From: Eledone cirrhosa | Taxonomy: Eukaryota | Length of the DNA: 64,000 bases | NCBI GenBank assembly: GCA_964016885.1 | Contig: OZ024744.1 | Location: 105,896,001 to 105,960,000, forward strand | Direction: 5' to 3' | Program-made: the position numbers and the translations under genes | Part shown: piece after piece, positions 3,001-53,208 of the stretch | How the letters are laid out: every line of letters begins with the position of its first letter | Numbering within the stretch: the stretch's first letter is position 1 | The notes under the pieces: generated by a model | Database searches by the model: none | The model's input: the letters and a program-made list of their open reading frames with translations, nothing else | What the model was told of the DNA's origin: nothing

Positions 3001-6000
3001 TGTTGTGTATTTGAGGGACAGTAGCCTCCCCCACAGTGGTACCATCTCTTTCTAATGGTATGTTGTGTATTTGAGAGACAGTAGCCTCCCCCACAGTGAT
3101 ACCATCTCTTTCTAATGGTATGTTGTGTATTTGAGAGACAGTAACCTCACACAGTGGTACCATCTCTTTCTAATGGTATGTTGTATATTTGAGGGACAGT
3201 AGCCTCACACAGTGGTACCATCTCTTTCTAATGGTATGTTGTGTATTTGAGGGACAGTAGCCTCACACAGTGGTACCATCTCTTTCTAATGGTATGTTGT
3301 GTATTTGAGGGACAGTAGCCTTACACAGTGGTACCATCTCTTTCTAATGGTATGTTGTGTATTTGAGGGACAGTAGCCCCACACAGTGGTACCATCTCTT
3401 TCTAATGGTATGTTGTGTATTTGAGGGACAGTAGCCTCCCCCACAGTGATACCATCTCTTTCTAATGGTATGTTGTGTATTTGAGGGACAGTAGCCTCAC
3501 ACAGTGGTACCATCTCTTTCTAATGGTATGTTGTATATTTGAGGGACAGTAGCCTCACACAGTGGTACCATCTCTTTCTAATGGTATGTTGTGTATTTGA
3601 GGGACAGTAGCCTCCCTCTCACAGTGGTACCATCTCTTTCTAATGGTATGTTGTATATTTGAGAGACAGTAGCCTCCCACAGTGGTACCATCTCTTTCTA
3701 ATGGTATGTTGTGTATTTGAGGGACAGTAGCCTCACACAGTGGTACCATCTCTTTCTAATGGTATGTTGTGTATTTGAGGGACAGTAGCCTCCCCCACAC
3801 AGTGGTACCATCTCTTTCTAATGGTATGTTGTGTATTTGAGGGACAGTAGCCTCACACAGTGGTACCATCTCTTTCTAATGGTATGTTGTGTATTTGAGA
3901 GACAGTAGCCTCACACAGTGGTACCATCTCTTTCTAATGGTATGTTGTGTATTTGAGGAACAGTAGCCTCACACAGTGGTACCATCTCTTTCTAATGGTA
4001 TGTTGTGTATTTGAGGGACAGTAGCCCCCCACAGTGATACCATCTCTTTCTAATGGTATGTTGTGTATTTGAGGGACAGTAGCCTCCCCCACAGTGGTAC
4101 CATCTCTTTCTAATGGTATGTTGTATATTTGAGAGACAGTAGCCTCACACAGTGGTACCATCTCTTTCTAATGGTATGTTGTGTATTTGAGGGACAGTAG
4201 CCTCACACAGTGGTACCATCTCTTTCTAATGGTATGTTGTGTATTTGAGGAACAGTAGCCTCCCTCTCACAGTGGTACCATCTCTTTCTAATGGTATGTT
4301 GTGTATTTGAGAGACAGTAGCCTCACACAGTGGTACCATCTCTTTCTAATGGTATGTTGTGTATTTGAGGGACAGTAGCCTCACACAGTGGTACCATCTC
4401 TTTCTAATGGTATGTTGTATATTTGAGGGACAGTAGCCTCCCACAGTGGTACCATCTCTTTCTAATGGTATGTTGTGTATTTGAGGGACAGTAGCCTCAC
4501 ACAGTGGTACCATCTCTTTCTAATGGTATGTTGTGTATTTGAGGGACAGTAGCCTCACACAGTGGTACCATCTCTTTCTAATGGTATGTTGTGTATTTGA
4601 GGAACAGTAGCCTCACACAGTGGTACCATCTCTTTCTAATGGTATGTTGTGTATTTGAGGGACAGTAGCCTCACACAGTGGTACCATCTCTTTCTAATGG
4701 TATGTTGTGTATTTGAGGGACAGTAACCTCCCACAGTGGTACCATCTCTTTCTAATGGTATGTTGTGTATTTGAGGGACAGTAACCTCCCACAGTGGTAC
4801 CATCTCTTTCTAATGGTATGTTGTGTATTTGAGGGACAGTAGCCTCCCTCTCACAGTGGTACCATCTCTTTCTAATGGTATGTTGTATATTTGAGGGACA
4901 GTAGCCTCACACAGTGGTACCATCTCTTTCTAATGGTATGTTGTGTATTTGAGGGACAGTAGCCTCCCCCACAGTGGTACCATCTCTTTCTAATGGTATG
5001 TTGTATATTTGAGGGACAGTAGCCTCACACAGTGGTACCATCTCTTTCTAATGGTATGTTGTGTATTTGAGGGACAGTAGCCTCACACAGTGGTACCATC
5101 TCTTTCTAATGGTATGTTGTGTATTTGAGGGACAGTAGCCTCCCACACAGTGGTACCATCTCTTTCTAATGGTATGTTGTGTATTTGAGGAACAGTAGCC
5201 TCACACAGTGGTACCATCTCTTTCTAATGGTATGTTGTATATTTGAGGGACAGTAGCCTCACACAGTGGTACCATCTCTTTCTAATGGTATGTTGTGTAT
5301 TTGAGGGACAGTAGCCTCCCCCACAGTGGTACCATCTCTTTCTAATGGTATGTTGTGTATTTGAGAGACAGTAGCCTCCCCCACAGTGATACCATCTCTT
5401 TCTAATGGTATGTTGTGTATTTGAGAGACAGTAACCTCACACAGTGGTACCATCTCTTTCTAATGGTATGTTGTATATTTGAGGGACAGTAGCCTCACAC
5501 CATCTCTTTCTAATGGTATGTTGTGTATTTGAGGGACAGTAGCCTCACACAGTGGTACCATCTCTTTCTAATGGTATGTTGTGTATTTGAGGGACAGTAG
5601 CCTTACACAGTGGTACCATCTCTTTCTAATGGTATGTTGTGTATTTGAGGGACAGTAGCCCCACACAGTGGTACCATCTCTTTCTAATGGTATGTTGTGT
5701 ATTTGAGGGACAGTAGCCTCCCCCACAGTGATACCATCTCTTTCTAATGGTATGTTGTGTATTTGAGGGACAGTAGCCTCACACAGTGGTACCATCTCTT
5801 TCTAATGGTATGTTGTATATTTGAGGGACAGTAGCCTCACACAGTGGTACCATCTCTTTCTAATGGTATGTTGTGTATTTGAGGGACAGTAGCCTCCCTC
5901 TCACAGTGGTACCATCTCTTTCTAATGGTATGTTGTATATTTGAGAGACAGTAGCCTCCCACAGTGGTACCATCTCTTTCTAATGGTATGTTGTGTATTT

Positions 6001-9000
6001 GAGGGACAGTAGCCTCACACAGTGGTACCATCTCTTTCTAATGGTATGTTGTGTATTTGAGGGACAGTAGCCTCCCCCACACAGTGGTACCATCTCTTTC
6101 TAATGGTATGTTGTGTATTTGAGGGACAGTAGCCTCACACAGTGGTACCATCTCTTTCTAATGGTATGTTGTGTATTTGAGAGACAGTAGCCTCACACAG
6201 TGGTACCATCTCTTTCTAATGGTATGTTGTGTATTTGAGGAACAGTAGCCTCACACAGTGGTACCATCTCTTTCTAATGGTATGTTGTGTATTTGAGGGA
6301 CAGTAGCCCCCCACAGTGATACCATCTCTTTCTAATGGTATGTTGTGTATTTGAGGGACAGTAGCCTCCCCCACAGTGGTACCATCTCTTTCTAATGGTA
6401 TGTTGTATATTTGAGAGACAGTAGCCTCACACAGTGGTACCATCTCTTTCTAATGGTATGTTGTGTATTTGAGGGACAGTAGCCTCACACAGTGGTACCA
6501 TCTCTTTCTAATGGTATGTTGTGTATTTGAGGAACAGTAGCCTCCCTCTCACAGTGGTACCATCTCTTTCTAATGGTATGTTGTGTATTTGAGAGACAGT
6601 AGCCTCACACAGTGGTACCATCTCTTTCTAATGGTATGTTGTGTATTTGAGGGACAGTAGCCTCACACAGTGGTACCATCTCTTTCTAATGGTATGTTGT
6701 ATATTTGAGGGACAGTAGCCTCCCACAGTGGTACCATCTCTTTCTAATGGTATGTTGTGTATTTGAGGGACAGTAGCCTCACACAGTGGTACCATCTCTT
6801 TCTAATGGTATGTTGTGTATTTGAGGGACAGTAGCCTCACACAGTGGTACCATCTCTTTCTAATGGTATGTTGTGTATTTGAGGAACAGTAGCCTCACAC
6901 AGTGGTACCATCTCTTTCTAATGGTATGTTGTGTATTTGAGGGACAGTAGCCTCACACAGTGGTACCATCTCTTTCTAATGGTATGTTGTGTATTTGAGG
7001 GACAGTAACCTCCCACAGTGGTACCATCTCTTTCTAATGGTATGTTGTGTATTTGAGGGACAGTAACCTCCCACAGTGGTACCATCTCTTTCTAATGGTA
7101 TGTTGTGTATTTGAGAGACAGTAGCCTCACACAGTGATACCATCTCTTTCTAATGGTATGTTGTGTATTTGAGGGACAGTAGCCTCCCCCACAGTGGTTC
7201 CATCTCTTTCTAATGGTATGTTGTGTATTTGAGGGACAGTAGCCTCCCCCACAGTGGTACCATCTCTTTCTAATGGTATGTTGTGTATTTGAGGGACAGT
7301 AGCCTCACACAGTGGTACCATCTCTTTCTAATGGTATGTTGTATATTTGAGGGACAGTAGCCTTACACAGTGGTACCATCTCTTTCTAATGGTATGTTGT
7401 GTATTTGAGGGACAGTAGCCTTACACAGTGGTACCATCTCTTTCTAATGGTATGTTGTGTATTTGAGGGACAGTAGCCTCACACAGTGGTACCATCTCTT
7501 TCTAATGGTATGTTGTATATTTGAGGGACAGTAGCCTCACACAGTGGTACCATCTCTTTCTAATGGTATGTTGTGTATTTGAGGGACAGTAGCCTCACAC
7601 AGTGGTACCATCACTTTCTAATGGTATGTTGTATATTTGAGGGACAGTAGCCTTACACAGTGGTACCATCTCTTTCTAATGGTATGTTGTGTATTTGAGG
7701 GACAGTAGCCTCCCCCACAGTGGTACCATCTCTTTCTAATGGTATGTTGTGTATTTGAGGGACAGTAGCCTCACACAGTGGTACCATCTCTTTCTAATGG
7801 TATGTTGTATATTTGAGGGACAGTAGCCTCACACAGTGGTACCATCTCTTTCTAATGGTATGTTGTGTATTTGAGGGACAGTAGCCTTACACAGTGGTAC
7901 CATCTCTTTCTAATGGTATGTTGTATATTTGAGGGACAGTAGCCTCACACAGTGGTACCATCTCTTTCTAATGGTATGTTGTATATTTGAGGGACAGTAG
8001 CCTCCCTCACAGTGGTACCATCTCTTTCTAATGGTATGTTGTGTATTTGAGGGACAGTAGCCTCACACAGTGGTACCATCTCTTTCTAATGGTATGTTGT
8101 ATATTTGAGGGACAGTAGCCTCACACAGTGGTACCATCTCTTTCTAATGGTATGTTGTATATTTGAGGGACAGTAGCCTCACACAGTGGTACCATCTCTT
8201 TCTAATGGTATGTTGTATATTTGAGGGACAGTAGCCTCACACAGTGGTACCATCTCTTTCTAATGGTATGTTGTGTATTTGAGGGACAGTAGCCTCCCTC
8301 TCACAGTGGTACCATCTCTTTCTAATGGTATGTTGTATATTTGAGAGACAGTAGCCTCCCACAGTGGTACCATCTCTTTCTAATGGTATGTTGTGTATTT
8401 GAGGGACAGTAGCCTCCCTCACAGTGGTACCATCTCTTTCTAATGGTATGTTGTGTATTTGAGGGACAGTAGCCTCCCACAGTGGTACCATCTCTTTCTA
8501 ATGGTATGTTGTGTATTTGAGCGACAGTAGCCTCACACAGTGGTACCATCTCTTTCTAATGGTATGTTGTGTATTTGAGGGACAGTAGTCTCACACAGTG
8601 GTACCATCTCTTTCTAATGGTATGTTGTGTATTTGAGAGACAGTAGCCTCCCCCACAGTGGTACCATCTCTTTCTAATGGTATGTTGTGTATTTGAGAGA
8701 CAGTAGCCTCCCCCACAGTGGTACCATCTCTTTCTAATGGTATGTTGTGTATTTGAGGGACAGTAGCCTCCCCCACAGTGGTACCATCTCTTTCTAATGG
8801 TATGTTGTGTATTTGAGGGACAGTAGCCTCCCACAGTGGTACCATCTCTTTCTAATGGTATGTTGTGTATTTGAGGGACAGTAGCCTCCCACAGTGGTAC
8901 CATCTCTTTCTAATGGTATGTTGTGTATTTGAGGGACAGTAGCCTCACACAGTGGTACCATCTCTTTCTAATGGTATGTTGTGTATTTGAGGGACAGTAG

Positions 9001-12000
9001 CCTCCCACACAGTGGTACCATCTCTTTCTAATGGTATGTTGTGTATTTGAGGGACAGTAGCCACACACAGTGGTACCATCTCTTTCTAATGGTATGTTGT
9101 GTATTTGAGAGACAGTAGCCTCACACAGTGGTACCATCTCTTTCTGATGGTATGTTGTGTATTTGAGGGACAGTAGCCTCACACAGTGGTACCATCTCTT
9201 TCTAATGGTATGTTGTGTATTTGAGGGACAGTAGCCTCACACAGTGGTACCATCTCTTTCTAATGGTATGTTGTGTATTTGAGGGACAGTAGCCTCCCAC
9301 ACAGTGGTACCATCTCTTTCTAATGGTATGTTGTATATTTGAGAGACAGTAGCCTCACACAGTGGTACCATCTCTTTCTAATGGTATGTTGTGTATTTGA
9401 GGGACAGTAGCCTCACACAGTGGTACCATCTCTTTCTAATGGTATGTTGTGTATTTGAGGGACAGTAGCCTCCCACACAGTGGTACCATCTCTTTCTAAT
9501 GGTATGTTGTATATTTGAGGGACAGTAGCCTCACACACAGTGGTACCATCTCTTTCTAATGGTATGTTGTGTATTTGAGGGACAGTAGCCTCCCACACAG
9601 TGGTACCATCTCTTTCTAATGGTATGTTGTATATTTGAGGGACAGTAGCCTCACACACAGTGGTACCATCTCTTTCTAATGGTATGTTGTGTATTTGAGG
9701 GACAGTAGCCTCCCACACAGTGGTACCATCTCTTTCTAATGGTATGTTGTGTATTTGAGGGACAGTAGCCTCCCACAGTGGTACCATCTCTTTCTAATGG
9801 TATGTTGTGTATTTGAGGGACAGTAGCCTCCCCCACAGTGGTACCATCTCTTTCTAATGGTATGTTGTGTATTTGAGGGACAGTAGCCCCCCACAGTGAT
9901 ACCATCTCTTTCTAATGGTATGTTGTATATTTGAGGGACAGTAGCCTCCCACACAGTGGTACCATCTCTTTCTAATGGTATGTTGTGTATTTGAGGGACA
10001 GTAGCCTCTCACAGTGGTACCATCTCTTTCTAATGGTATGTTGTGTATTTGAGGGACAGTAGCCTCACACAGTGGTACCATCTCTTTCTAATGGCATGTT
10101 GTGTATTTGAGGGACAGTAGCCTCACACAGTGGTACCATCTCTTTCTAATGGTATGTTGTGTATTTGAGAGACAGTAGCCTACACAGTGGTACCATCTCT
10201 TTCTAATGGTATGTTGTGTATTTGAGAGACAGTAGCCTCACACAGTGGTACCATCTCTTTCTAATGGTATGTTGTGTATTTGAGGGACAGTAGCCTCCCA
10301 CAGTGGTACCATCTCTTTCTAATGGCATGTTGTGTATTTGAGGGACAGTAGCCTCACACAGTGGTACCATCTCTTTCTAATGGTATGTTGTGTATTTGAG
10401 GGACAGTAGCCTCACACAGTGGTACCATCTCTTTCTAATGGCATGTTGTGTATTTGAGGGACAGTAGCCTCCCCCACAGTGGTACCATCTCTTTCTAATG
10501 GTATGTTGTGTATTTGAGGGACAGTAGCCTCCCACAGTGGTACCATCTCTTTCTAATGGCATGTTGTGTATTTGAGGGACAGTAGCCTCACACAGTGGTA
10601 CCATCTCTTTCTAATGGTATGTTGTATATTTGAGGGACAGTAGCCTCACACAGTGGTACCATCTCTTTCTAATGGTATGTTGTGTATTTGAGAGACAGTA
10701 GCCTCACACAGTGGTACCATCTCTTTCTAATGGTATGTTGTGTATTTGAGAGACAGTAGCCTCCCACAGTGGTACCATCTCTTTCTAATGGTATGTTGTG
10801 TATTTGAGGGACAGTAGCCTCCCACAGTGGTACCATCTCTTTCTAATGGCATGTTGTGTATTTGAGGGACAGTAGCCTCCCACAGTGGTACCATCTCTTT
10901 CTAATGGTATGTTGTGTATTTGAGGGACAGTAGCCTCACACAGTGGTACCATCTCTTTCTAATGGTATGTTGTGTATTTGAGGGACAGTAGCCTCCCCCA
11001 CACAGTGGTACCATCTCTTTCTAATGGTATGTTGTGTATTTGAGAGACAGTAGCCTCACACAGTGGTACCATCTCTTTCTAATGGTATGTTGTGTATTTG
11101 AGGGACAGTAGCCTTACACAGTGGTACCATCTCTTTCTAATGGTATGTTGTATATTTGAGGGACAGTAGCCTCACACAGTGGTACCATCTCTTTCTAATG
11201 GCATGTTGTGTATTTGAGGGACAGTAGCCTCCCACAGTGATACCATCTCTTTCTAATGGTATGTTGTGTATTTGAGGGACAGTAGCCTCCCACAGTGGTA
11301 CCATCTCTTTCTAATGGCATGTGTATTTGAGGGACAGTAGCCTCACACAGTGGTACCATCTCTTTCTAATGGTATGTTGTATATTTGAGGGACAGTAGCC
11401 TCACACAGTGGTACCATCTCTTTCTAATGGTATGTTGTGTATTTGAGGGACAGTAGCCTCCTCCACAGTGATACCATCTCTTTCTAATGGTATGTTGTGT
11501 ATTTGAGGGACAGTAGCCTCACACAGTGATACCATCTCTTTCTAATGGTATGTTGTGTATTTGAGGGACAGTAGCCTCACACAGTGATACCATCTCTTTC
11601 TAATGGTATGTTGTGTATTTGAGGGACAGTAGCCTCACACAGTGGTACCATCTCTTTCTAATGGTATGTTGTATATTTGAGGGACAGTAGCCTCACACAG
11701 TGGTACCATCTCTTTCTAATGGTATGTTGTGTATTTGAGGGACAGTAGCCTCACACAGTGGTACCATCTCTTTCTAATGGTATGTTGTGTATTTGAGGGA
11801 CAGTAGCCTCCCACAGTGGTACCATCTCTTTCTAATGGTATGTTGTGTATTTGAGGGACAGTAGCCTCCCACAGTGGTACCATCTCTTTCTAATGGTATG
11901 TTGTGTATTTGAGGGACAGTAGCCTCACACAGTGGTACCATCTCTTTCTAATGGTATGTTGTGTATTTGAGGGACAGTAGCCTCCCACACAGTGGTACCA

Positions 12001-15000
12001 TCTCTTTCTAATGGTATGTTGTGTATTTGAGGGACAGTAGCCACACACAGTGGTACCATCTCTTTCTAATGGTATGTTGTGTATTTGAGAGACAGTAGCC
12101 TCACACAGTGGTACCATCTCTTTCTGATGGTATGTTGTGTATTTGAGGGACAGTAGCCTCACACAGTGGTACCATCTCTTTCTAATGGTATGTTGTGTAT
12201 TTGAGGGACAGTAGCCTCACACAGTGGTACCATCTCTTTCTAATGGTATGTTGTGTATTTGAGGGACAGTAGCCTCCCACACAGTGGTACCATCTCTTTC
12301 TAATGGTATGTTGTATATTTGAGAGACAGTAGCCTCACACAGTGGTACCATCTCTTTCTAATGGTATGTTGTGTATTTGAGGGACAGTAGCCTCCTCCAC
12401 AGTGGTACCATCTCTTTCTAATGGTATGTTGTGTATTTGAGGGACAGTAGCCTCACACACAGTGGTACCATCTCTTTCTAATGGTATGTTGTATATTTGA
12501 GGGACAGTAGCCTCACACAGTGGTACCATCTCTTTCTAATGGTATGTTGTGTATTTGAGGGACAGTAGCCTCCCACACAGTGGTACCATCTCTTTCTAAT
12601 GGTATGTTGTATATTTGAGGGACAGTAGCCTCACACACAGTGGTACCATCTCTTTCTAATGGTATGTTGTGTATTTGAGGGACAGTAGCCTCCCACACAG
12701 TGGTACCATCTCTTTCTAATGGTATGTTGTATATTTGAGGGACAGTAGCCTCACACACAGTGGTACCATCTCTTTCTAATGGTATGTTGTGTATTTGAGG
12801 GACAGTAGCCTCCCACACAGTGGTACCATCTCTTTCTAATGGTATGTTGTGTATTTGAGGGACAGTAGCCTCCCACAGTGGTACCATCTCTTTCTAATGG
12901 TATGTTGTGTATTTGAGGGACAGTAGCCTCCCCCACAGTGGTACCATCTCTTTCTAATGGTATGTTGTGTATTTGAGGGACAGTAGCCCCCCACAGTGAT
13001 ACCATCTCTTTCTAATGGTATGTTGTATATTTGAGGGACAGTAGCCTCCCACACAGTGGTACCATCTCTTTCTAATGGTATGTTGTGTATTTGAGGGACA
13101 GTAGCCTCTCACAGTGGTACCATCTCTTTCTAATGGTATGTTGTGTATTTGAGGGACAGTAGCCTCACACAGTGGTACCATCTCTTTCTAATGGCATGTT
13201 GTGTATTTGAGGGACAGTAGCCTCACACAGTGGTACCATCTCTTTCTAATGGTATGTTGTGTATTTGAGAGACAGTAGCCTACACAGTGGTACCATCTCT
13301 TTCTAATGGTATGTTGTGTATTTGAGAGACAGTAGCCTCACACAGTGGTACCATCTCTTTCTAATGGTATGTTGTGTATTTGAGGGACAGTAGCCTCCCA
13401 CAGTGGTACCATCTCTTTCTAATGGCATGTTGTGTATTTGAGGGACAGTAGCCTCACACAGTGGTACCATCTCTTTCTAATGGTATGTTGTGTATTTGAG
13501 GGACAGTAGCCTCACACAGTGGTACCATCTCTTTCTAATGGCATGTTGTGTATTTGAGGGACAGTAGCCTCCCCCACAGTGGTACCATCTCTTTCTAATG
13601 GTATGTTGTGTATTTGAGGGACAGTAGCCTCCCACAGTGGTACCATCTCTTTCTAATGGCATGTTGTGTATTTGAGGGACAGTAGCCTCACACAGTGGTA
13701 CCATCTCTTTCTAATGGTATGTTGTATATTTGAGGGACAGTAGCCTCACACAGTGGTACCATCTCTTTCTAATGGTATGTTGTGTATTTGAGAGACAGTA
13801 GCCTCACACAGTGGTACCATCTCTTTCTAATGGTATGTTGTGTATTTGAGAGACAGTAGCCTCCCACAGTGGTACCATCTCTTTCTAATGGTATGTTGTG
13901 TATTTGAGGGACAGTAGCCTCCCACAGTGGTACCATCTCTTTCTAATGGCATGTTGTGTATTTGAGGGACAGTAGCCTCCCACAGTGGTACCATCTCTTT
14001 CTAATGGTATGTTGTGTATTTGAGGGACAGTAGCCTCACACAGTGGTACCATCTCTTTCTAATGGTATGTTGTGTATTTGAGGGACAGTAGCCTCCCCCA
14101 CACAGTGGTTCCATCTCTTTCTAATGGTATGTTGTGTATTTGAGAGACAGTAGCCTCACACAGTGGTACCATCTCTTTCTAATGGTATGTTGTGTATTTG
14201 AGGGACAGTAGCCTTACACAGTGGTACCATCTCTTTCTAATGGTATGTTGTATATTTGAGGGACAGTAGCCTCACACAGTGGTACCATCTCTTTCTAATG
14301 GCATGTTGTGTATTTGAGGGACAGTAGCCTCCCACAGTGATACCATCTCTTTCTAATGGTATGTTGTGTATTTGAGGGACAGTAGCCTCCCACAGTGGTA
14401 CCATCTCTTTCTAATGGCATGTGTATTTGAGGGACAGTAGCCTCACACAGTGGTACCATCTCTTTCTAATGGTATGTTGTATATTTGAGGGACAGTAGCC
14501 TCACACAGTGGTACCATCTCTTTCTAATGGTATGTTGTGTATTTGAGGGACAGTAGCCTCCTCCACAGTGATACCATCTCTTTCTAATGGTATGTTGTGT
14601 ATTTGAGGGACAGTAGCCTCACACAGTGATACCATCTCTTTCTAATGGTATGTTGTGTATTTGAGGGACAGTAGCCTCACACAGTGATACCATCTCTTTC
14701 TAATGGTATGTTGTGTATTTGAGGGACAGTAGCCTCACACAGTGGTACCATCTCTTTCTAATGGTATGTTGTATATTTGAGGGACAGTAGCCTCACACAG
14801 TGGTACTATCTCTTTCTAATGGTATGTTGTGTATTTGAGGGACAGTAGCCTCACACAGTGGTACCATCTCTTTCTAATGGTATGTTGTGTATTTGAGGGA
14901 CAGTAGCCTCACACAGTGGTACCATCTCTTTCTAATGGTATGTTGTATATTTGAGGGACAGTAGCCTCACACAGTGGTACCATCTCTTTCTAATGGTATG

Positions 15001-17140
15001 TTGTGTATTTGAGGGACAGTAGCCTTACACAGTGGTACCATCTCTTTCTAATGGTATGTTGTATATTTGAGGGACAGTAGCCTCCCACAGTGGTACCATC
15101 TCTTTCTAATGGTATGTTGTGTATTTGAGGGACAGTAGCCTCACACAGTGGTATCATCTCTTTCTAATGGTATGTTGTATATTTGAGGGACAGTAGCCTC
15201 ACACAGTGGTACCATCTCTTTCTAATGGTATGTTGTGTATTTGAGGGACAGTAGCCTCACACAGTGGTACCATCTCTTTCTAATGGTATGTTGTGTATTT
15301 GAGGGACAGTAGCCTCACACAGTGGTACCATCTCTTTCTAATGGTATGTTGTGTATTTGAGGGACAGTAGCCTCACACAGTGGTACCATCTCTTTCTAAT
15401 GGTATGTTGTATATTTGAGGGACAGTAGCCTCACACAGTGGTACCATCTCTTTCTAATGGTATGTTGTGTATTTGAGGGACAGTAGCCTCACACAGTGGT
15501 ACCATCTCTTTCTAATGGTATGTTGTGTATTTGAGGGACAGTAGCCTCACACAGTGGTATCATCTCTTTCTAATGGTATGTTGTATATTTGAGGGACAGT
15601 AGCCTCACACAGTGGTACCATCTCTTTCTAATGGTATGTTGTGTATTTGAGGGACAGTAGCCTCACACAGTGGTACCATCTCTTTCTAATGGTATGTTGT
15701 GTATTTGAGGGACAGTAGCCTCACACAGTGGTACCATCTCTTTCTAATGGTATGTTGTGTATTTGAGGGACAGTAGCCTCACACAGTGGTACCATCTCTT
15801 TCTAATGGTATGTTGTATATTTGAGGGACAGTAGCCTCCCACAGTGGTACCATCTCTTTCTAATGGTATGTTGTGTATTTGAGGGACAGTAGCCTCCCTC
15901 TCACAGTGGTACCATCTCTTTCTAATGGTATGTTGTGTATTTGAGGGACAGTAGCCTCACACAGTGGTACCATCTCTTTCTAATGGTATGTTGTGTATTT
16001 GAGGGACAGTAGCCTCACACAGTGGTACCATCTCTTTCTAATGGTATGTTGTGTATTTGAGGGACAGTAGCCTCACACAGTGGTACCATCTCTTTCTAAT
16101 GGTATGTTGTATATTTGAGGGACAGTAGCCTCCCACAGTGGTACCATCTCTTTCTAATGGTATGTTGTGTATTTGAGGGACAGTAGCCTCACACAGTGGT
16201 ACCATCTCTTTCTAATGGTATGTTGTGTATTTGAGGGACAGTAGCCTCACACAGTGGTACCATCTCTTTCTAATGGTATGTTGTGTATTTGAGGGACAGT
16301 AGCCTCACACAGTGGTACCATCTCTTTCTAATGGTATGTTGTGTATTTGAGGGACAGTAGCCTCACACAGTGGTACCATCTCTTTCTAATGGCATGTTGT
16401 ATATTTGAGGGACAGTAGCCTCACACAGTGGTACCATCTCTTTCTAATGGTATGTTGTGTATTTGAGGGACAGTAGCCTCCCCCACAGTGGTACCATCTC
16501 TTTTTAATGGTATGTTGTATATTTGAGAGACAGTAGCCTCACACAGTGATACCATCTCTTTCTAATGGTATGTTGTGTATTTGAGGGACAGTAGCCTCCC
16601 TCACAGTGGTACCATCTCTTTCTAATGGTATGTTGTATATTTGAGGGACAGTAGCCTCACACAGTGGTACCATCTCTTTCTAATGGTATGTTGTGTATTT
16701 GAGAGACAGTAGCCTCACACAGTGGTACGATCTCTTTCTAATGGTATGTTGTATATTTGAGGGACAGTAGCCTCACACAGTGGTACCATCTCTTTCTAAT
16801 GGTATGTTGTGTATTTGAGAGACAGTAGTCTCACACAGTGGTATCATCTCTTTCTAATGGTATGTTGTGTATTTGAGGGACAGTAGCCTCATACAGTGGT
16901 ACCATTTCTTTCTAATGGTATGTTGTGTATTTGAGGGACAGTAGCCTCCCACAGTGGTACCATTTCTTTCTAATGGTATGTTGTATATTTGAGGGACAGT
17001 AGCCTTACACAGTGGTACCATCTCTTTCTAATGGTATGTTGTGTATTTGAGGGACAGTAGCCTCACACAGTGGTACCATCTCTTTCTAATGGTATGTTGT
17101 GTATTTGAGGGACAGTAGCCTTACACAGTGATACCATCTC
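1..17140. repeat. 58-bp tandem satellite (about 290 copies, runs off the window start), apparently intronic in TRAPPC11
   Basis: Unit TTTGAGGGACAGTAGCCTCACACAGTGGTACCATCTCTTTCTAATGGTATGTTGTGTA (58 bp; 60/62-bp variants from extra CC/CA/CT after TAGCCT). Ends abruptly near 17140, about 100 bp from the donor of exon 17246-17371. Confidence 0.99.
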
Positions 17141-25561: not shown

Positions 25562-26758
25562 ATGTGTGTGTATGTGTGTGTATGTGTGTGTGTGTATGTG
25601 TGTGTATATATATAGTTAGAAATAACAAAAAACAAACAGAAAACAAAAAAGGAGTGAGTTAAGCTTGTGGAGCTTGGTGGAGGTGAGGAAGGAGAAGAGA
25701 TCACGGTTGAGGTTATGGATGAAGAGGATGATGGAGTGGGTGAGGAGGGGGGTGACGGGTGGAGCGGAGGCGAAGGAGGGTTATATATAAGATGGTGGTG
25801 GTATGGCAGAGATCATTAGCGTCTCCAGTTATATATCTTTGCACTGTAAGTTCTAATCCTGCCAAGGTCAATTTCGTCGTTCATGGGTCAATAGATATTG
25901 GCTAAATTGTTAGAGTATCAGACGTAATGGTTTGTGATAGATGTTCTGATTCTCCACATTCATCATCATCATCATCATCATTTTACGTCCGCTTTTTCCC
26001 TGCTTGCAAGGGTGGGACGGGAACCGATGCTGGCTCAATTTCTACAGCTGGATGCCCTTCCTAACACCAACCTCATTTACAGTGTGGGCTGGGTGCTTTT
26101 TTGCCGTGGCACCTCCACGACCACTTTGCAGTGGAATGATAGGGACCGCAGTCCCTATCATCTCATTTCTACAGCTGAGTAAACTGGAGCAATGTGAAAT
26201 AAAATGTCTTGCTCAAGGAAACAACACATCACTCGGTCTGAGAATTGAACTCACAACCTTTCGATTGCAAGGCCAATGCTCTAACCACTAAGCCATGTGC
26301 CTCTCAGTTCAAATTCCATTGTCTGTCACAGGAAAAATAGTGATAAGATCTGACTGAGGGTGGGGGTAGCTTTAAGACCCCTAAATGACTTCTTGCGTGA
26401 TGTAACCTCATAGATTGCATGTGAGAGAGAGAGAGAGGGGGGGATGGAGGGAGGGAGAGAGAGAGAGAGACTTTAAAAAACATTAAAACAGTGCTATGTG
26501 AATAATCAAGAAGATATGAGAAAAACCGGCAGAGCAAGTTGAACATCACGAGTTGGAGGAACTTCTAGAAGAATGATCCAACTATCATCAATAACAGCAG
26601 TTAAATCATCATCAAATCTCACCCTACCCCCCAGAGACACAGTGGACAATGTGGCTGTAGAATCACATCTGAAATAAAAGATGGGGGGGGGGGGGGTCAT
26701 GGCTGGAAAATTTGAACCATAGATCAGAGAACAACAACAATATAATTGAATCACTCAC

Positions 26759-26884
26759 CATATATCAGATATGGAAGCATTTTCCTTGTTGGTGATATTG
26801 ATTTTCACTAAATAGAATTCATTGAGTAAACTTGGTGAATCATGGATGACTTTGATATCCAGTCTAGCGTGACGGGGAATAATC
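26759..26884 (-). CDS. TRAPPC11: TRAPPC11 exon: (K)IIPRHARLDIKVIHDSPSLLNEFYLVKINITNKENASISDI
   Basis: tttag|G...TG|gtgag, 126 nt, phase 2/2; matches human [41 protein letters not shown]. Confidence 0.95.
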
Positions 26885-26918
26885 CTAAAAAATGAAGACA
26901 AATATTTAGAAATAGCTG

Positions 26919-27527
26919 ATAACAGTTGGTAACAGACCATGGTATGGTATAACAGTTGGTAACAGACCATGGTATGGTATAACAGTTGGTAACAGACCCT
27001 GGCATGGTATAACAGTTGGTAACAGACCCTGGCATGGTATAACAGTTGGTAACAGACCCTGGCATGGTATAACAGTTGGTAACAGATCCCTGGTGTGGTA
27101 TAACAGTTGGTAACAGACCATGGTATGGTATAACAGTTGGTAACAGACCATGGTATGGTATAACAGTTGGTAACAGACCATGGTATGGTATAACAGTTGG
27201 TAGCATACCATGGTATAACAGTTGGTAACAGACCATGGTATAGTATAACAGTTGGTAACAGACCATGGTATGGTATAACAGTTGGTAACAGACCCTGGTA
27301 TGGTATAACAGTTGGTAACAGACCATGGTATGGTATAACAGTTGGTAACAGACCATGGTATGGTATAACAGTTGGTAACAGACCATGGTATGGTATAACA
27401 GTTGATACCAGACCATGGTATGGTATAACAGTTGATACCAGACCAAGGCATGGTATAACAGTTGATACCAGACCATGCCATGGTATAACAGTTGATACCA
27501 GATCATTACATGGTATAACAGTTGATA
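26919..27527. repeat. 30-bp minisatellite, about 20 copies
   Basis: Unit TAACAGTTGGTAACAGACCATGGTATGGTA; begins about 35 nt from the 26884 acceptor. Confidence 0.97.
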
Positions 27528-27742
27528 TTATTTGATATTAAAGTAACATAAAAATATCAAGCATACATCATACTTATTGTTTTTCACACAGAATGGCTCA
27601 AAGTATTCTTTATTAAACATTACAACTGGTATAATGATAAATTAGATAAATTCATTAGGTGGAATAATTAATGAATACACACACACATACAAGCTTGTTA
27701 TCAGGTAAAACATGTTAAATGATGATAATGATATATATATAT

Positions 27743-28589: not shown

Positions 28590-29971
28590 AATGTGGTTGT
28601 TTAGGTATCTAGACAAGAGCGCCCAGTCCACTCTGTAAAGTGGTTGTTTAGGTATCTAGACAAGAGCGCCCAGTCCACTCTGTAAAGTGGTTGTTTAGGT
28701 ATCTAGACAAGAGCGCCCAGTCCACTCTGTAAGTGGTTGTTTAGGTATCATGACAAAAAGCACCCAGTCCACTCTGTAAAGTGGTTGTTTAGGTATCATG
28801 ACAAAAGCGCCCAGTCCACTCTGTAAAGTGGTTGTTTAGGTGTCATGACAAAAAGCACCCAGTCCACTCTGTAAAGTGGTTGTTTAGGTGTCATGACAAA
28901 AAGCACCCAGTCCACTCTGTAAAGTGGTTGTTTAGGTGTCATGACAAAAAGCATCCAGTCCACTCTGTAAAGTGGTTGTTTAGGTATCATGACAAAAAGC
29001 ACCCAGTTCACTCTGTAAAGTGGTTGCTTAGGTGTCATGACAAAAAGCACCCAGTCCACTCTGTAAAGTGGTTGTTTAGGTGTCATGACAAAAAGCACCC
29101 AGTCCACTCTGTAAAGTGGTTGTTTAGGTGTCATGACAAAAAGCACCCAGTCCACACTGTAAATGTGGTTGTTTAGGTATCTAGACAAGAGCGCCCAGTC
29201 CACTCTGTAAAGTGGTTGTTTAGGTATCATGACAAAAGCGCCCAGTCCACTCTGTAAAGTGGTTGTTTAGGTGTCATGACAAAAAGCACCCAGTCCACTC
29301 TGTAAAGTGGTTGTTTAGGTATTATGACAAAAGCGCCCAGTCCACTCTGTAAAGTGGTTGTTTAGGTGTCATGACAAAAAGCACCCAGTCCACTCTGTAA
29401 AGTGGTTGTTTAGGTGTCATGACAAAAGCGCCCAGTCCACTCTGTAAAGTGGTTGTTTAGGTGTCATGACAAAAAGCACCCAGTCCACTCTGTAAAGTGG
29501 TTGTTTAGGTATTATGACAAAAGCGCCCAGTCCACTCTGTAAAGTGGTTGTTTAGGTGTCATGACAAAAAGCACCCAGTCCACTCTGTAAAGTGGTTGTT
29601 TAGGTGTCATGACAAAAAGCACCCAGTCCACTCTGTAAAGTGGTTGTTTAGGTGTCATGACAAAAAACACCCAGTCCACTCTGTAAAGTGGTTGTTTAGG
29701 TATCATGACAAGAGCGCCCAGTCCACTCTGTAAAGTGGTTGTTTAGGTATCATGACAAAAGCGCCCAGTCCACTCTGTAAAGTGGTTGTTTAGGTGTCAT
29801 GACAAAAAGCACCCAGTCCACTCTGTAAAGTGGTTGTTTAGGTATTATGACAAAAGCGCCCAGTCCACTCTGTAAAGTGGTGTTTAGGTGTCATGACAAA
29901 AAGCACCCAGTCCACTCTGTAAAGTGGTTGTTTAGGTGTCATGACAAAAGGCACCCAGTCCACTCTGTAAA
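28590..29971. repeat. 45-46-bp minisatellite derived from the SINE B body, about 30 copies
   Basis: Unit ATGACAAAAAGCACCCAGTCCACTCTGTAAAGTGGTTGTTTAGGTGTC; runs into a SINE B-like 3' tail (GCATCCAACTGCAGAAA..ATGATGATG). Confidence 0.95.
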
Positions 29972-30125
29972 GCATCCAACTGCAGAAAACAAGCCAAAAT
30001 CAGTTCCATGTATGCGAATCAAGGTCCTCTGACCTGATCTCTCACAAAGAGACAGCCTGCCCTACCCATGCTAGCGTGGAAGATAGACATTAAACAATGA
30101 TGATGACATATATAAGATATCTTAC

Positions 30126-30298
30126 TTTGTTACTGGAATAGCGGTGACTGACTTCCAGTCAATTGCCCTATCAGATTCTTTCTTGTGCCAAATAGTCTGT
30201 ACAGTAGACGATGGTGCAACAGCATCACCGCCAGCTCCAAGCCAATAAAGGAAAGCCAACCTTCCTTCAGTGCCAATTTGAAGAACTATGGTTGTAAT
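30126..30298 (-). CDS. TRAPPC11: TRAPPC11 exon: ITTIVLQIGTEGRLAFLYWLGAGGDAVAPSSTVQTIWHKKESDRAIDWKSVTAIPVT
   Basis: gatag|ATT...AA|gtaag, 173 nt, phase 0/2; carries the conserved L.W.G.GGDA motif (human VVLNWQGGGGDA). Confidence 0.95.
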
Positions 30299-47180: not shown

Positions 47181-47539
47181 CAGCTGAACTCCAGCAAGTA
47201 CATCATTTATAGCCTACATTGAGTTCCATACTATGGCAAACATAAAAAACAAACAAAATAATATTACACCTAAGTACCTGTGCGATGACAACATGAGTGA
47301 TTGTTACATAATGGCTTTGATGTCTTTGAAATGTACATAACGGGATAATGTAATAAACTGAGGATGTATACGTGATACCGTCTTTCTTCTTTCTTATAAT
47401 GTTGACACTCTGTCCGACACCATATAGGTAATATCTTATCATACCCACATTGTGGAGTGCTTATTTCTGATTACACCACATTTGGTCAACTGCTTTTGTT
47501 TTGCAAGTATATGTCTGTCTCCTAGCAATACTGGCTGTG

Positions 47540-48700
47540 GTGTATTTTTATGCATTCTACCATGTCTGGTTAGTCCACCAACTGACTTGCAAATTAAGCC
47601 ACACTCACTGCAAATGTGGAGGGCCTGGAGGTAGAACCATCTCACAAATGGCTCAATTTCTCCCCAGCTCATGTGACTTTAGATGGTTCACAAATCCAGC
47701 TCTTGATAGAATTGACAACATACAGAGCACTTCAATTCCTGCTGGAATTTTGCAGTACTGCACTTGGGTCCTGCTTATGGATTGAATGCTTCAAAGCACT
47801 CCCCTTTCCCCAAAGACATCACATCCATATTTGATGATCTTTCTCCAAGATGTACGGTCTTGAACCATTTTCTCCCAATTCCCCATATCAATCTTCAGCG
47901 CTTTAAGATTGTCTTTTATGACGTCCTTAAACCGCTTCTTTGGTTTATGTTGTGGCCTTTTTCCTCTGGTCAGCTTGTCATAAAATATCTGTTTAGGCAG
48001 CCTTCTACCTTCCATCCTGACCACATGACCAGCCCAACACACCTGAAGCATAATAATCCTCCTCTCAAAACTGGTGCTACCCACTTTCTCAAGTACTGCA
48101 GCATTAGGTGTGTAAGAGGACCACTTGGTGTTCAGGATGTATCATATACAATGCTGATGAAACCTTTCCAACTGCCTGATATGATGCCTGTAAGTTGTCC
48201 ACATTTCACATCCATATAGCAGGGCTGTAAGAACACAGGCCTCATACACAGAGAGCTTTGTGTTTCTTGTCATCCCTCTATCTGACCAGACGCCTTTTTC
48301 AATCAACCCGAATGCAAGACTCAATATTTTGCAGTTCTGAGATCTATTTCAACATCGAGAGTACCATCTCTACTAAGTGTACTTCTGAGATACACAAAGC
48401 TGTCCACCACCTCAAGAGTTTTTCTTTTCTCAAAAATGTCTCCCTCCACATACATTTCCTAACCTTAGACATTTTTATACAAATATTTAGCCCAAACATA
48501 GTTCATGCATTGGAGAAGGTGTCCAATATAAACTGCATGTCCTCTACAGTGTGAGCCACAAAATCTGCATCATCAGCATACAGGAACTCCCAAACAAGAG
48601 TGTCAAATATTGTGGACTTAGATTAAAGACTTTACCAGAAGTTCTAATTCACATGTAAACACTGATTCTTAAGTCTTGTAAGCCATATGTCAGCAGTATG
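47540..48700 (-). mobile_element. RTE/BovB-like LINE, 5'-truncated and degenerate
   Basis: RTSGKVFNL, EFLYADDADFVAH, TKLSVYEACVLTALLYGCEMW, WAGHVVRMEGRRLPKQIFY, and C-terminal C2H2 finger CSECGLICKSVGGLTRHGRMH. Confidence 0.92.
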
Positions 48701-48779
48701 GCACAGTAGATGGAGAACAGGGTGGTGCATGTATGTCACCCTGCTTGCACTGAAATTAACTCATGGAATTTATTTAATA

Positions 48780-50565
48780 TTCCAACAAATACAAGTTTTC
48801 CCTAATATGACCCACAGTGCACTACAATTAACAGTATTAAAGCCTTTAGTAAGGTCCACAATTAATTTGTACAGTGGCACTCGAGCTCAACACACCACGA
48901 ATTCCTAAAACACTCCAGATGTGGTCGTCCTTTTCCATATGGGCATTGAAATCTACAAGAAGTAAGATCTTGTCCGAATGTGGAATCTATTATATACCCT
49001 CAGAAATCTTGGTAACAAGCCATGATTGATTCCTGGCTACTATCCAGGGTAGGGGCATACACTGAAATGATAGTCATGAAATGTCCCATTGAAAGAGGAA
49101 CTCATAGATTCATAATTTGAAATCAAACAAACAAACCTCATGAAGTAAGCTGCCAGAAAATATTCAACTTATATGAATTTGTTAATTACCTAACACAGAG
49201 AAACACAGAAAAAAGATGGGTAATTGCAGTTAACGAAATAATGACAAATTCACAAGTCATGTTCCAATAAAAAATAGCAAATATTACAATTGAAGAACCA
49301 GAAAAATTGGACGAAGAACAAGAACTGAAAAAACAAGACACTGTGAGAGGGAAAAAAATACGATTTTATAAAAAGAATCATGAAAAAATGTAACTCAACC
49401 GGCATGGGAGACATACTAGACTTCATCAAAACAACAAACAAAACTAAATACAAAGACACATGGGTAAACATATATAGATCAACACCGAACCTTTTGACCA
49501 TTATACAAAGGGCAGCAATAGAAACACACTAAAGTCACTCCTATTTGGAAACAAATAACAGAAAAGAAAGAATAATACCTTTTAAATGCAAACAACCAAT
49601 TCTGGGATATACAGACATTAATCTTCAAAGAATGGTTGACATTGCAAAACAGAAATTTTCCAAGCAAGCGTTCGAAATATGTCACAAGATAAATCCTAAT
49701 GTAAACAGATTACATATAATTGTTTCTACTTTTAGCACAAGGCCAGCAATTACTCAAGGGCATTACTGGTACTTTATTTTATCGATCCCAGGTGTAAATA
49801 ATTCCAGGGAAAGTTATATATTACCTTTGATAGGAAATGGTCTTATGACTTGTGGAAGAATGCACTGCCAAGCATCAGTTAACTTTACATCAAGCAACTA
49901 CATTGATTAAAACATTAATAGACACAGACGAAATGTGGTTTACAATAAACAACATAAAAGCAAAATACATTTAGTAAGGGGTCCCTGTATACAAATCAAA
50001 CCTCAATCAGAAAGAATACTAAAGAGAACTCCATGGCTGAGTACCAGGAACACAGAGCCATGGAATACAATCATCCACGGAAAAGAAGCAATGTTCAACA
50101 GAGTCTATTATTACAAGACATACAAACCAATACCAAAACTAAAACAATGAGGCATGGTTGAATTCAACACCTTAATGTGGTTAACTATTTGGAAAGATTA
50201 CCTCAACAAGTTTGTTAGCGAGGAATACGTTCAAATATAGATGGACAACGACATACCAAAAAAGGCTAAACAATTTCTGTACTTGATCAACAACCTTGCA
50301 TCACCGGGGAAAAAAAAAAAAAAGAAAAACACAACCCAAGTAAGAAAAGAATTAGAATTTGATTTATAAAAAGAAACACAGGTTTAAATGTGAATTTGAT
50401 CCAAATCAATCTGCATATATCACGGACGAGATTTTGGTCTGTAATTTCTTAGACACACTAAACACACCACACAATTCACCCCAACCAGAAAACATTAATG
50501 AAGAATGGAGCCCCATTACAATGAACTTTATTGACTGTTACATACTAAATGTTATATCACTTTCT
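48780..50565 (+). pseudogene. Endogenous parvoviral element: decayed NS1 (HUH endonuclease + SF3 helicase), Hamaparvovirinae/hepanhamaparvovirus-like
   Basis: Manual translation across stops and frameshifts: FVQWHSSSTHHEFLKHSRCGRPFPYGH*NLQ...PHEVSCQKIFNLYEFVNYL...KINPNVNRLHI[SINE]PGVNNSRESYI (degenerate Walker A)...CGRMHCQASVNFTSSNYID/TLIDTDEMWF (Walker B)...QIKPQSERILKRTPWLSTRNTEPWN (B' and motif C)...EAMFNRVYYYKTYKPIPKLKQ*GMVEFNTLMWLTIW. A-rich strand. Boundaries approximate; subfamily assignment from memory. Confidence 0.85.
49717..49787 (-). mobile_element. 3' fragment of SINE family A inserted in the NS1 endogenous viral element
   Basis: AATTGTTTCTACTTTTAGCACAAGGCCAGCAATTAC..CATTACTGGTACTTTATTTTATCGA equals the reverse-complemented SINE A tail. 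Confidence 0.9.
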
Positions 50566-51234
50566 TAAATTTAACTCTGCGAGAGAGACATTGTAATCTT
50601 TTTCAGAAGAATATTTACATAAGAGTGTGGTGAAGATTGCAATGATTCATTAATTACATAAAATGACTTTTCTAACTGGACGTATGCTATACAAGATGGC
50701 AAGCTAGCGTGGAAAAATGGACGTAAAATGGTGATGATGATGATGGTATCATCTCCATATTTGATCTAATACATTTTAAAATAAAGTACTGACACTATTA
50801 TATTGTTTTTGTTCTTTTTTATTGCATGAGGACAATGTATTGGCAGTATCGGTAGAGGGTCAGACGCCATGCTTTGCAGCAAAGAGTTACGGCCCTTTAT
50901 GGTCTGAGTTCAAATCCCGCCGAGGTTAACTTTGCCTTTCATCCCTACGAGGTCGATAAAATAAAGTACCAGTAATACACTGGTATAATTGCTGGCCTTG
51001 TGCCAAAAGTAGAAACAATTATTTTGCCACTGGTCACTATTCACTAATGATGATGTCATAACTTTCATTTAATTTTACCTTTCATCCTTACGGGGGTCGA
51101 TAAAATAAAGTACCAGTAAAGCACTGGGATAATTGCTGGCCTTGTGCCAAAAGTAGAAACAATTATTACTATATGTATATCTATCTATATATATCGAGCC
51201 CTCTTTGGATTTTAGTCTTCAAATTTATTATTAT

Positions 51235-51303
<69 letters not shown>

Positions 51304-51779
51304 CACATATATATATATAAATAGAAGACACCAGCAAACAGTGCCAGTGCAATACAATTTATTTTTCAGATACCACTGCCAAGTAACTGGTAAGTAATTA
51401 AAAATTACATTTTGAGCCATGGTAATGGTGAAAATTAGAGAAGGCACCATTTGTGCCAATCAATATTTTTTTCCAAGCCTGTTCTATTTTATTCAAAAAT
51501 ATTGAAAAAAATTCTAAAAACTGCCATCATCTCTTATTAACAGAGACAGTGGCTGCCTGTTTTTCTCTTGTCTTTGTATTGTGTGCCTGCCCCTGTTTTG
51601 GAACTCATACTCTAAAGTTTTAGCCACATTTTTTAATCATTATCATCATCATCACAATTTAACATGGGTTAGACTGGTTGTCCTGTTTGAGGCAAGTTGG
51701 GTCCGGTGACCATGTATTGCTCACACAGAACTGTTTCTGGTTTTGGTTTCTACAGCTGGATGCCCTTCTAATGCCAACC

Positions 51780-52370
51780 ACATTTACAGTGTGGGCTGGG
51801 TGCTTTTTGTTGTGACACCTACACAACCACATTAGTGTGAACTGGGTGCTTTTTGTTGTGGCACCTACACAACCACATTACAGTGTGAACTGGGTGCTTT
51901 TTGTTGTGACACCTACACAACCACATTAGTGACGGCTGGGTGCTTTTTGTTGTGACACCTACACGACCACATTAGTGTGAACTGGGTGGTTTTTGTTGTG
52001 ACACCTACATGACCACTTTACAGTGTGGGCTGGGTGCTTTTTGTTGTGACACCTACACGACCACATTAGTGTGAACTGGGTGGTTTTTGTTGTGACACCT
52101 ACACGACCACTTTACAGTGTGGGCTGGGTGGTTTTTGTTGTGACACCTACACAACCACATTACAGTGTGAACTGGGTGGTTTTTGTTGTGACACCTACAC
52201 GACCACTTTACAGTGTGGGCGGGGTGGTTTTTGTTGTGACACCTACACAACCACATTACAGTGTGAACTGGGTGCTTTTTGTTGTGACACCTACACGACC
52301 ACTTTACAGTGTGAACTGGGTGGTTTTTGTTGTGACACCTACACGACCACTTTACAGTGTGGGCTGGGTA
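51780..52370. repeat. About 47-bp minisatellite from the SINE B body, reverse orientation
   Basis: Unit ACAGTGTG(GG/AA)CTGGGTG(C/G)TTTTTGTTGTGACACCTACAC(A/G)ACCAC(A/T)TT. Confidence 0.92.
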
Positions 52371-53208
52371 GTTAGATCAGATGAGTTGATAACACAACTG
52401 TATAAGGCAAACAGATATTCAAAGCTCGAATGTGATTTTATTATCCACAGCAAGATTGGCAAAAAAAGTTTCATCCAATTCTTAAATTTCCAGTCGTACG
52501 TAGTAGTCTTATAACATCTCATAACATGAATGAATAATTAATCAATGTATTGAACCTTGATTATTTATTCATTCATTATATATAACATCCCTTCTTTCTC
52601 TCCTGACTCACCTATCCTCTCCTTCAGTCTTCCTCTATTTATACTGCCTCTGTTGTTGAAGTCTTGACTGTGTAAGTAACAAGGCTCACTACATAGACAT
52701 ATTAAATGAATGCTTAAACTCTACTTTGGTATTGAATAATTTTTCAATGAGACAACTCATCTAACCCATGCTAGCGTGGAAAAATGAATGTTAAATGATG
52801 ATGAAGATGATGATGATGACAAACACACAAATTATATCATCCAAGATTTTTTTAAATGTTGGCATTGCTGCAGCCACCGCCACTGCTTTCTCTCTCTCTC
52901 CACCCCTCACACATTCTCTTACCACCCCCTTTCAATTAAACACTAATTACAGCATGGGATTAAAAAGAAAATGTTCTGTATTACTGCAACCACCAGAGCA
53001 CTCTCTCTTTGTTTCATACACACACACACTCATACACCCCCCCCCCCTTTCCAGTGTGACCAATGTTTTACACAAAATGTACAACAGCTTTAATATAATA
53101 CATAATAATAATTATAATTATTTCAAACTTTAACAGAAATAAAACATAACCTCAACAACAACAATAATAATAATAATAATAATTTCAAACTCTGGAAAAA
53201 ATAAAACA

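Follow-up and report, generated by a model that had tools for sequence, protein, structure and literature searches.

A decayed parvoviral NS1 fragment in a likely octopod genome and a likely unclassified cephalopod parvovirus lineage with reversed gene order

Described parvoviruses and the new locus

Parvoviruses typically package linear ssDNA of 4-6 kb in T=1 virions, with terminal hairpins on either side of the coding region and a jelly-roll capsid protein that often has an N-terminal PLA2. All parvoviruses are stated to carry NS on the left and the capsid gene on the right (PMC11357303), and assignment to Parvoviridae, for which a six-subfamily scheme exists, rests on the SF3 helicase (PMC13426907); these and all other papers below are cited for the accessible parts of their text. 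Hepanhamaparvoviruses have genomes of about 6.3 kb with 220-nt ITRs, the capsid gene on the right, and no PLA2 (PMC11357303). Judging from the 2025 subfamily names, Decapod hepanhamaparvovirus 1 would fall within Hepanvirinae. In the Swazi bat megaparvovirus-like lineage, whose host was assigned via endogenous copies, a PLA2 frame lies upstream of NS1 on the same strand (PMC13426907).

Parvovirus-like fragments from cephalopods have been in print since 2016 (PMC5013282). That report includes transcripts (Sepia officinalis FO193416, Euprymna scolopes DW277466, and GBHH01003248) that are said to branch outside all known genera, as well as endogenous parvoviral NS1 sequences from an octopus, Octopus bimaculoides (KOF81493 and KOF62817). 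By eye, the transcripts share the helicase and C-terminal blocks of the lineage described here (lineage A), while KOF81493 resembles a second lineage (lineage B). The transcripts are short EST/TSA fragments for which contamination is possible, whereas the sequences described here are chromosomal and multi-copy, with capsid and gene order visible; for the O. bimaculoides elements, the accessible text of PMC5013282 reports neither capsid nor gene order. We found no other paper on cephalopod EVEs and no report of a capsid-first parvovirus, including in the accessible text of PMC9896142, PMC6950620, and PMC11822035; subscription journals, ICTV proposals, and most supplements could hold either.

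Here, we describe an NS1 fossil in a stretch of 64,000 nucleotides (the window; C28:105896001-105960000) and the lineage to which it leads. By itself, the window fossil is an ordinary decayed NS1 fragment. The lineage carries the SF3 helicase that defines Parvoviridae, while the window's own broken, single-frame reading matches no parvoviral Pfam family. The lineage departs from the NS-left, capsid-right layout, and its capsid with N-terminal PLA2 is found in copies outside the window only, with a jelly-roll predicted by a low-confidence model. The best solved-structure matches are to Parvovirinae, both for NS1 (AAV2 Rep68, B19V NS1) and for PLA2. Parvovirinae and the lineage are both monosense and share the PLA2 plus a glycine-rich stretch at the capsid N-terminus, but identity is 15-23%, and the lineage has an invertebrate host and a capsid gene upstream of NS1. 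With the hepanhamaparvovirus, it shares the HUH plus SF3 architecture of the family and a marine invertebrate host, but differs in helicase sequence, PLA2, genome size, gene order, and the host itself. In the Swazi bat lineage, the true capsid lies downstream and lacks PLA2, whereas here the upstream frame looks like the whole capsid.

The NS1 fossil and its surroundings

NS1 homology spans window positions 49121-~50460 on the plus strand (Table 1). A first-pass annotation of the window had proposed an A-rich NS1 tract of about 1.8 kb; the A-richness holds (AT skew up to 0.46), but the full length does not, as the 5' 340 bases are not viral. As a reference relative, we used P0003, the longest Logan protein retrieved, which matches the 64-kb window at E=8.5e-65 (tblastn). 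In a frameshift-aware alignment, P0003 amino acids 117-509 share 185 of 379 residues (49%) with 49121-50351, across four stops, five frameshifts, and one SINE insert; the stop count depends on the reference, since alignment with a second relative, P0008, counts only the last two. Thus, the proposal of an endogenous parvoviral NS1 fossil is well supported, and EFVNYL, Walker A, GRMHCQASVNFT, Walker B, B'/C, and FNR all lie where they had been placed. The H-x-H motif of P0003 (amino acids 91-93) lies upstream of the part kept in the window, where it is deleted. The window's own reading has no homologue at E<=0.01 in the protein database (0 of 168 candidates), nor a Pfam family as noted above, so the identification runs through relatives: the Parvo_NS1 profile, proposed as a check, does not match the window's own frames but does match a sister copy on C2, in a 193-codon open frame (E=5.8e-13; 48.9 bits against a cut-off of 20). 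Beyond the aligned gene, a 3' tail also resembles the C2 copy, with a score of 162.5 against a mean of 69.9 and a maximum of 100.5 for 200 shuffles. The window contains no terminal hairpin and no capsid remnant, and a search beyond the LINE that adjoins the fossil found neither the NS1 N-terminus nor a capsid.

Table 1. Features in and around the NS1 fossil (window coordinates)
Feature	Position	Strand	Remarks
Decayed LINE	47512..49120	-	Truncated at its own 5' end at 49120; adjoins viral DNA
"HUH" motif of the first-pass annotation	48938..48955	+	Chance antisense reading of LINE endonuclease
Decayed NS1 gene	49121..50351	+	From just 5' of the catalytic-tyrosine motif through the C-terminal region
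NS1 stops	49268, 49573, 50148, 50238	+	P0003 alignment
NS1 frameshifts	near 49350, 49530, 49660, 49910, 49980	+	P0003 alignment
EFVNYL	49175-49192	+	Aligns with the Tyr-containing nuclease-domain motif of relatives
SINE piece	49716..49789	-	Host high-copy repeat, directly before Walker A
SF3 helicase motifs A (degenerate), B (shifted frame), B', C, arginine finger	49791..50102	+	
Degenerate Walker A	starts 49791	+	
GRMHCQASVNFT	49854	+	Motif quoted in the first-pass annotation, present at this position
Walker B TLIDTDEMWF	49912	+	Different frame
B'/C motifs	about 49992-50051	+	
Arginine finger FNR	50094-50102	+	
3' tail of viral stretch	50352..50560	+	Like C2 sister copy: clear to ~50470, patchy further on
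Host SINE copies	50839..51171	+	Right flank of fossil

The viral sequence begins where a truncated LINE, which we take to belong to the RTE clade, ends. In our DNA search of the genome itself (3.0 Gb), 13 of 14 LINE copies run on past 49120 with shared LINE sequence, and 20 of 43 matches stop at 47512-47517, which marks the 3' limit. Copies of the LINE match Exo_endo_phos and RVT_1 over cut-off on the opposite strand. They are about 85% identical to the window LINE and equally alike among themselves. The LINE family is old and, judging by their similar decay, LINE and fossil are probably of similar age. About 1.3 kb of the LINE is missing between 48895 and 48903, and the remaining stretch, 48903-49120, belongs to a host repeat of high copy number (38 of 41 matches, 80-89% identity, with 40 of 1,025 candidates scored). 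The minus strand of this piece is LINE endonuclease (one copy matches PF03372, E=2.7e-9), and the supposed HUH motif YGH*NL is this endonuclease read antisense, and not viral. The N-termini of two relatives, aligned to 48501-49125, scored 26 and 38 against 28-34 and 24-32 for their shuffles (eight each); the second slightly exceeds its own shuffles, where a true NS1 match scores 678-753. Each of the five relatives extending to the 5' end begins at 49112-49124, and the frameshift-aware alignment begins at 49121, one base beyond the LINE. There is no target-site duplication around the LINE, nor around LINE plus virus. Directly left of the LINE 3' end, 47211-47495 is another dispersed repeat (75-85% to its copies). 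The repeat inserted before Walker A, presumably a SINE as had been proposed, is likewise confirmed as host sequence, with 60 of 62 matches in the genome DNA search at 82-97% identity to copies.

The fossil had been assigned to an intron of TRAPPC11, and matches to Pfam families outside the window agree. Foie-gras_1 exons lie on the minus strand in model order at C28:106.017, 106.011, and 106.006 Mb (E=5.6e-8, 5.3e-6, and 0.006), and a Gryzun exon lies on the other side at C28 105.877 Mb (E=0.0023, under cut-off); in this exon test, four of nine candidate frames matched these families. With exons on both sides of the window, the fossil (105.945 Mb) sits inside a TRAPPC11-like gene and runs antisense to it. 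Gryzun and Gryzun-like, searched against the genome, gave no matches, and no candidate exon inside the window was confirmed by search; 30125..30298 on the minus strand is a candidate TRAPPC11-like exon. Elsewhere in the window, positions 1-17100 form a long tandem array (a weak-match ladder), with higher-order repeats and a period that appears to be near 58 nt, and short-unit tandem arrays at 26758-27537, 28698-29999, and 51700-52511 create long pseudo-frames.

The proposed octopod host is likely, as the genome contains haemocyanin genes of the molluscan type, made up of seven consecutive units (C1:173.7-173.9 Mb; C26:21.9-22.0 Mb, an inverted pair; C27:61-67 kb). We take seven units to fit an octopod, with the understanding that Nautilus likewise has seven. 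Joining of the segment to host DNA, which had been named as a point to check, is borne out by short-read contigs that cross LINE-NS1-SINE (49026-49739) and SINE-NS1-flank (49762-50732) with no differences, thereby spanning both internal junctions and the right flank. These contigs have a depth of 3.8-5.6 and were found in both contig runs of one sample, which may be the assembled individual; RAD-seq runs from other samples have no coverage here. Joints with host DNA at single-copy depth, decay, and host repeats within the sequence are thus all present, as in endogenous elements. Over 49178-50700, summed contig depth is about 5-17 per bin, about double the 4-6 of the contigs that match exactly; this may reflect two alleles, both carrying the fossil.

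Lineages A and B and the order of their genes

The C2 copy matches the helicase region of the window at 73% over 411 nt and, besides repeats, is the one second place found by the DNA search. The C2 frame retrieves Logan proteins at 55-61% identity, and P0003 in turn matches the genome at 77 or more places, with 84 of 97 candidates scored. In 41 fetched stretches plus the window, with loci merged at 100 kb, we count at least 17 loci of the window's own lineage A and at least 14 of lineage B; these are minimum counts, as the stretches cover all but a few of the P0003 matches. The helicase tree (157 rows, 178 columns) combines the 126 of 162 proteins that passed a length filter, 30 genomic pieces, and the window masked at its breaks; it is effectively unrooted, and the sequences in it exclude ICTV-classified references. 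Lineage A has a support of 1.0 (stem 0.73), and the window groups with the C2 and C3 copies at 0.96. Lineage B falls far from lineage A in the tree and is not its sister, and NS1 identity between the two is 19-20%.

Window and C2 copies differ at 28 of 146 first, 23 of 147 second, and 60 of 142 third codon positions. This third-position bias indicates that they derive from different viruses, and it rules out that the C2 copy is a duplicate of the window insertion. Lineage A copies overall are 58-83% alike in coding DNA. All four lineage A proteins scanned contain H-x-H, and the structural model of P0003 (pLDDT 88) matches AAV2 Rep68 over both domains (E=4.4e-18); as modelled, the NS1 of the lineage has the HUH nuclease plus SF3 helicase architecture. 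None of the 10 lineage A clusters has a name, and scans of viral contigs and metagenome contigs found no relatives. Among 20 more distant proteins, the named ones are a Mactra antiquata hypothetical protein, a protein of "Turdus hortulorum parvoviridae sp.," and one "hypothetical protein." The Mactra protein (P0036, KAL4217968.1) is encoded on a 27-Mb clam contig and likely belongs to a parvoviral element endogenous to this bivalve.

In better-kept copies, a frame of 500-620 codons precedes NS1 on the same strand. It starts with a parvoviral PLA2, for which PF08398 is over cut-off in four of six frames tested (39.7 and 34.0 bits in two lineage A capsids; cut-off 23.9), and this PLA2 matches solved structures of Parvovirinae at E=0.003-0.09. 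The part behind the PLA2 scores 0.92 to parvovirus VP1_2 (Atlas), and all 49 listed Foldseek rows for the capsid model are parvovirus structures, from a poor model (pLDDT 38, TM 0.15-0.24). The capsids of the two lineages are homologous, at 23-27% over about 250 aa (L054-L055 vs L066 and L060). Since their helicases are not sisters, the homologous capsids and common gene order may reflect either old shared ancestry or module exchange.

In each lineage, 12 places show the order capsid-then-NS1 (two duplicate rows dropped for A and one for B). Five of the 12 lineage A places preserve the end of the capsid as well as the start of NS1, with gaps of 50, 65, 75, about 200-340, and 938 nt; in lineage B, 11 of 12 have a gap of 49-54 nt. 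The order NS1-then-capsid occurs at four places, all of which lack the start of the capsid. In no copy does the end of NS1 lead into the start of a capsid from the same lineage, and no true capsid was found downstream of NS1. The loci were picked by NS1 matches with both flanks, so either order could have shown. One read contig of 1,978 nt crosses the capsid-NS1 junction and was found in both contig runs. As no free virus was found, the order rests on one host genome; we infer that it is the virus's own and that these copies likely represent an unclassified cephalopod parvovirus lineage with reversed gene order.

The gene pair is flanked by palindromes (z -6.9 to -25.8), on one side before the capsid and on the other beyond NS1. 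Lineage B copies have head-to-head and tail-to-tail duplications centred on these outer palindromes, as would be expected of rolling-hairpin intermediates, and a GGGA repeat common to both ends. Integration itself produces palindromes. Two palindromes (z -25 and -9.4) fall within coding sequence, and one lineage A copy has a left end whose folding does not exceed that of shuffled sequence (z -1.0), which makes the terminus evidence weaker for lineage A. One lineage A copy has about 4.3 kb between its ends. TATA-like words precede the capsid start in six of six copies and lie near the capsid end at five of seven lineage A junctions, while zero of seven lineage B junctions have them upstream of the stop; in DNA this AT-rich, these words as promoters are a lead only.

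Several copies show further rearrangement. Three lineage B loci (L067 on C998, L068 at C10:49.49 Mb, and L069 at C14:8.50 Mb) are 98-100% identical over 1.5-3.4 kb and carry head-to-head and tail-to-tail inverted duplications; their near-identity points to a recent wave of lineage B integration. L094 (C23:3.303-3.307 Mb) is a chimeric insertion in which a piece of lineage A capsid lies between two stretches of lineage B NS1, all on one strand. Frames at L052:2-1095 and L056:5988-6668 beside parvoviral copies are helicase-like and, we presume, resemble Helitron proteins. Four clusters mix both lineages with transposon fragments, with all viral matches on a single strand: C12:8.98-9.09 Mb (L054-L056, L081, L095; 20 of 20), C2:345.36-345.40 Mb (L059-L062; 16 of 16), C25:7.43-7.46 Mb (L063-L065; 17 of 17), and C841 (L076-L078; 15 of 15). 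In their arrangement, these clusters look like piRNA clusters.

Origin, alternatives, and implications

Altogether, we consider it quite likely that the fossil is a broken two-thirds of an NS1 gene, antisense in a TRAPPC11-like intron, that stems from germline infection by an unclassified, capsid-first cephalopod parvovirus and is inert; taken separately, its inertness today is likely. The infecting virus would have been linear, running hairpin - capsid - NS1 - hairpin and replicating by rolling hairpin, with a left promoter serving the capsid and a second promoter, in the 3' end of the capsid gene, serving NS1. As the favoured of three routes, the fossil may have entered together with the LINE by a template jump: the LINE enzyme, copying from 47512 upward during target-primed reverse transcription, would have jumped at 49120 to a viral minus-strand template, which would give exactly the observed orientation. 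More tentatively, a later deletion may have fused two separate insertions, which fits the LINE's own large internal deletion and the lack of a target-site duplication. Capture at a DNA break is an unlikely route. The SINE and the mutations would have arrived after integration.

The capsid-first order could also be a product of integration, if circles or head-to-tail concatemers of an NS-left, capsid-right genome had been inserted. Circular parvoviral DNA has been described in shrimp (PMC8507497), and rearranged multimers do occur in this genome (L067, L068, L069). However, two hairpin ends plus a promoter would not fit into the space between capsid and NS1, which measures 49-54 nt at 11 lineage B places and 50-75 nt at three of lineage A; the palindromes lie outside the capsid-NS1 pair, and the complementary junction was never seen within a lineage. 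We therefore regard this origin as very unlikely. A further alternative is an element of viral origin that multiplies inside the genome by means of its HUH-helicase protein, without separate infections. The many loci, the near-identical trio of lineage B, and some long open frames would suit such an element, but the divergence of lineage A copies, their third-position bias, the capsid genes carried along, and the predominance of fragments with unrelated ends make it very unlikely.

As for the source of the virus, the first-pass annotation had likened the helicase blocks to those of shrimp HPV and proposed a hepanhamaparvovirus fossil that records a jump from crustaceans. Fossil and HPV alike have an SF3 helicase from a parvovirus of marine invertebrates. 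By eye, though, the blocks it quoted are absent from all seven SF3 sequences of hepandensoviruses in the PMC5013282 supplement and present in the Sepia and Euprymna transcripts. The lineage has a PLA2, about 4.3 kb between the ends, and the capsid first, versus no PLA2, about 6.3 kb, and the capsid on the right in HPV. No named HPV protein appears among the 5 and 15 matches of our protein searches. We reject a hepanhamaparvovirus identity as extremely unlikely, and since the 2016 report already includes endogenous O. bimaculoides sequences, no crustacean-to-cephalopod jump is indicated. It is also highly unlikely that the window insertion was kept as antiviral memory, whereby NS1 antisense in the host pre-mRNA would give rise to small RNAs. 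The fossil is antisense to its host gene, and other copies sit in one-strand clusters of mixed lineages, like piRNA clusters; the window copy, however, is solitary, old, and strongly decayed.

The preferred reading, of a capsid-first cephalopod parvovirus, would extend beyond the window to an undescribed and probably subfamily-level group of coleoid parvoviruses, linear and monosense, with a PLA2 capsid before NS1 and dozens of germline entries spread over a long time, some of whose clusters may represent piRNA-type memory; we hold this wider picture to be evenly balanced. If true, two deeply separate NS1 lineages share a capsid-first layout and homologous capsids. Through the fossil, an orphan lineage gains a host, a capsid, and a genome map; the host is fixed because germline copies cannot be dietary contamination. 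This map turns the NS-left, capsid-right rule around, and with it the basis of the usual early/late promoter logic of parvoviruses; it raises the question of when NS1 is expressed in a capsid-first parvovirus. Two further questions are whether cephalopods, wild or farmed, carry a live virus today and whether molluscan piRNA-like clusters hold viral sequence as those of mosquitoes do. Given orthologues, the differently decayed copies could calibrate the long-term evolution of parvoviruses.
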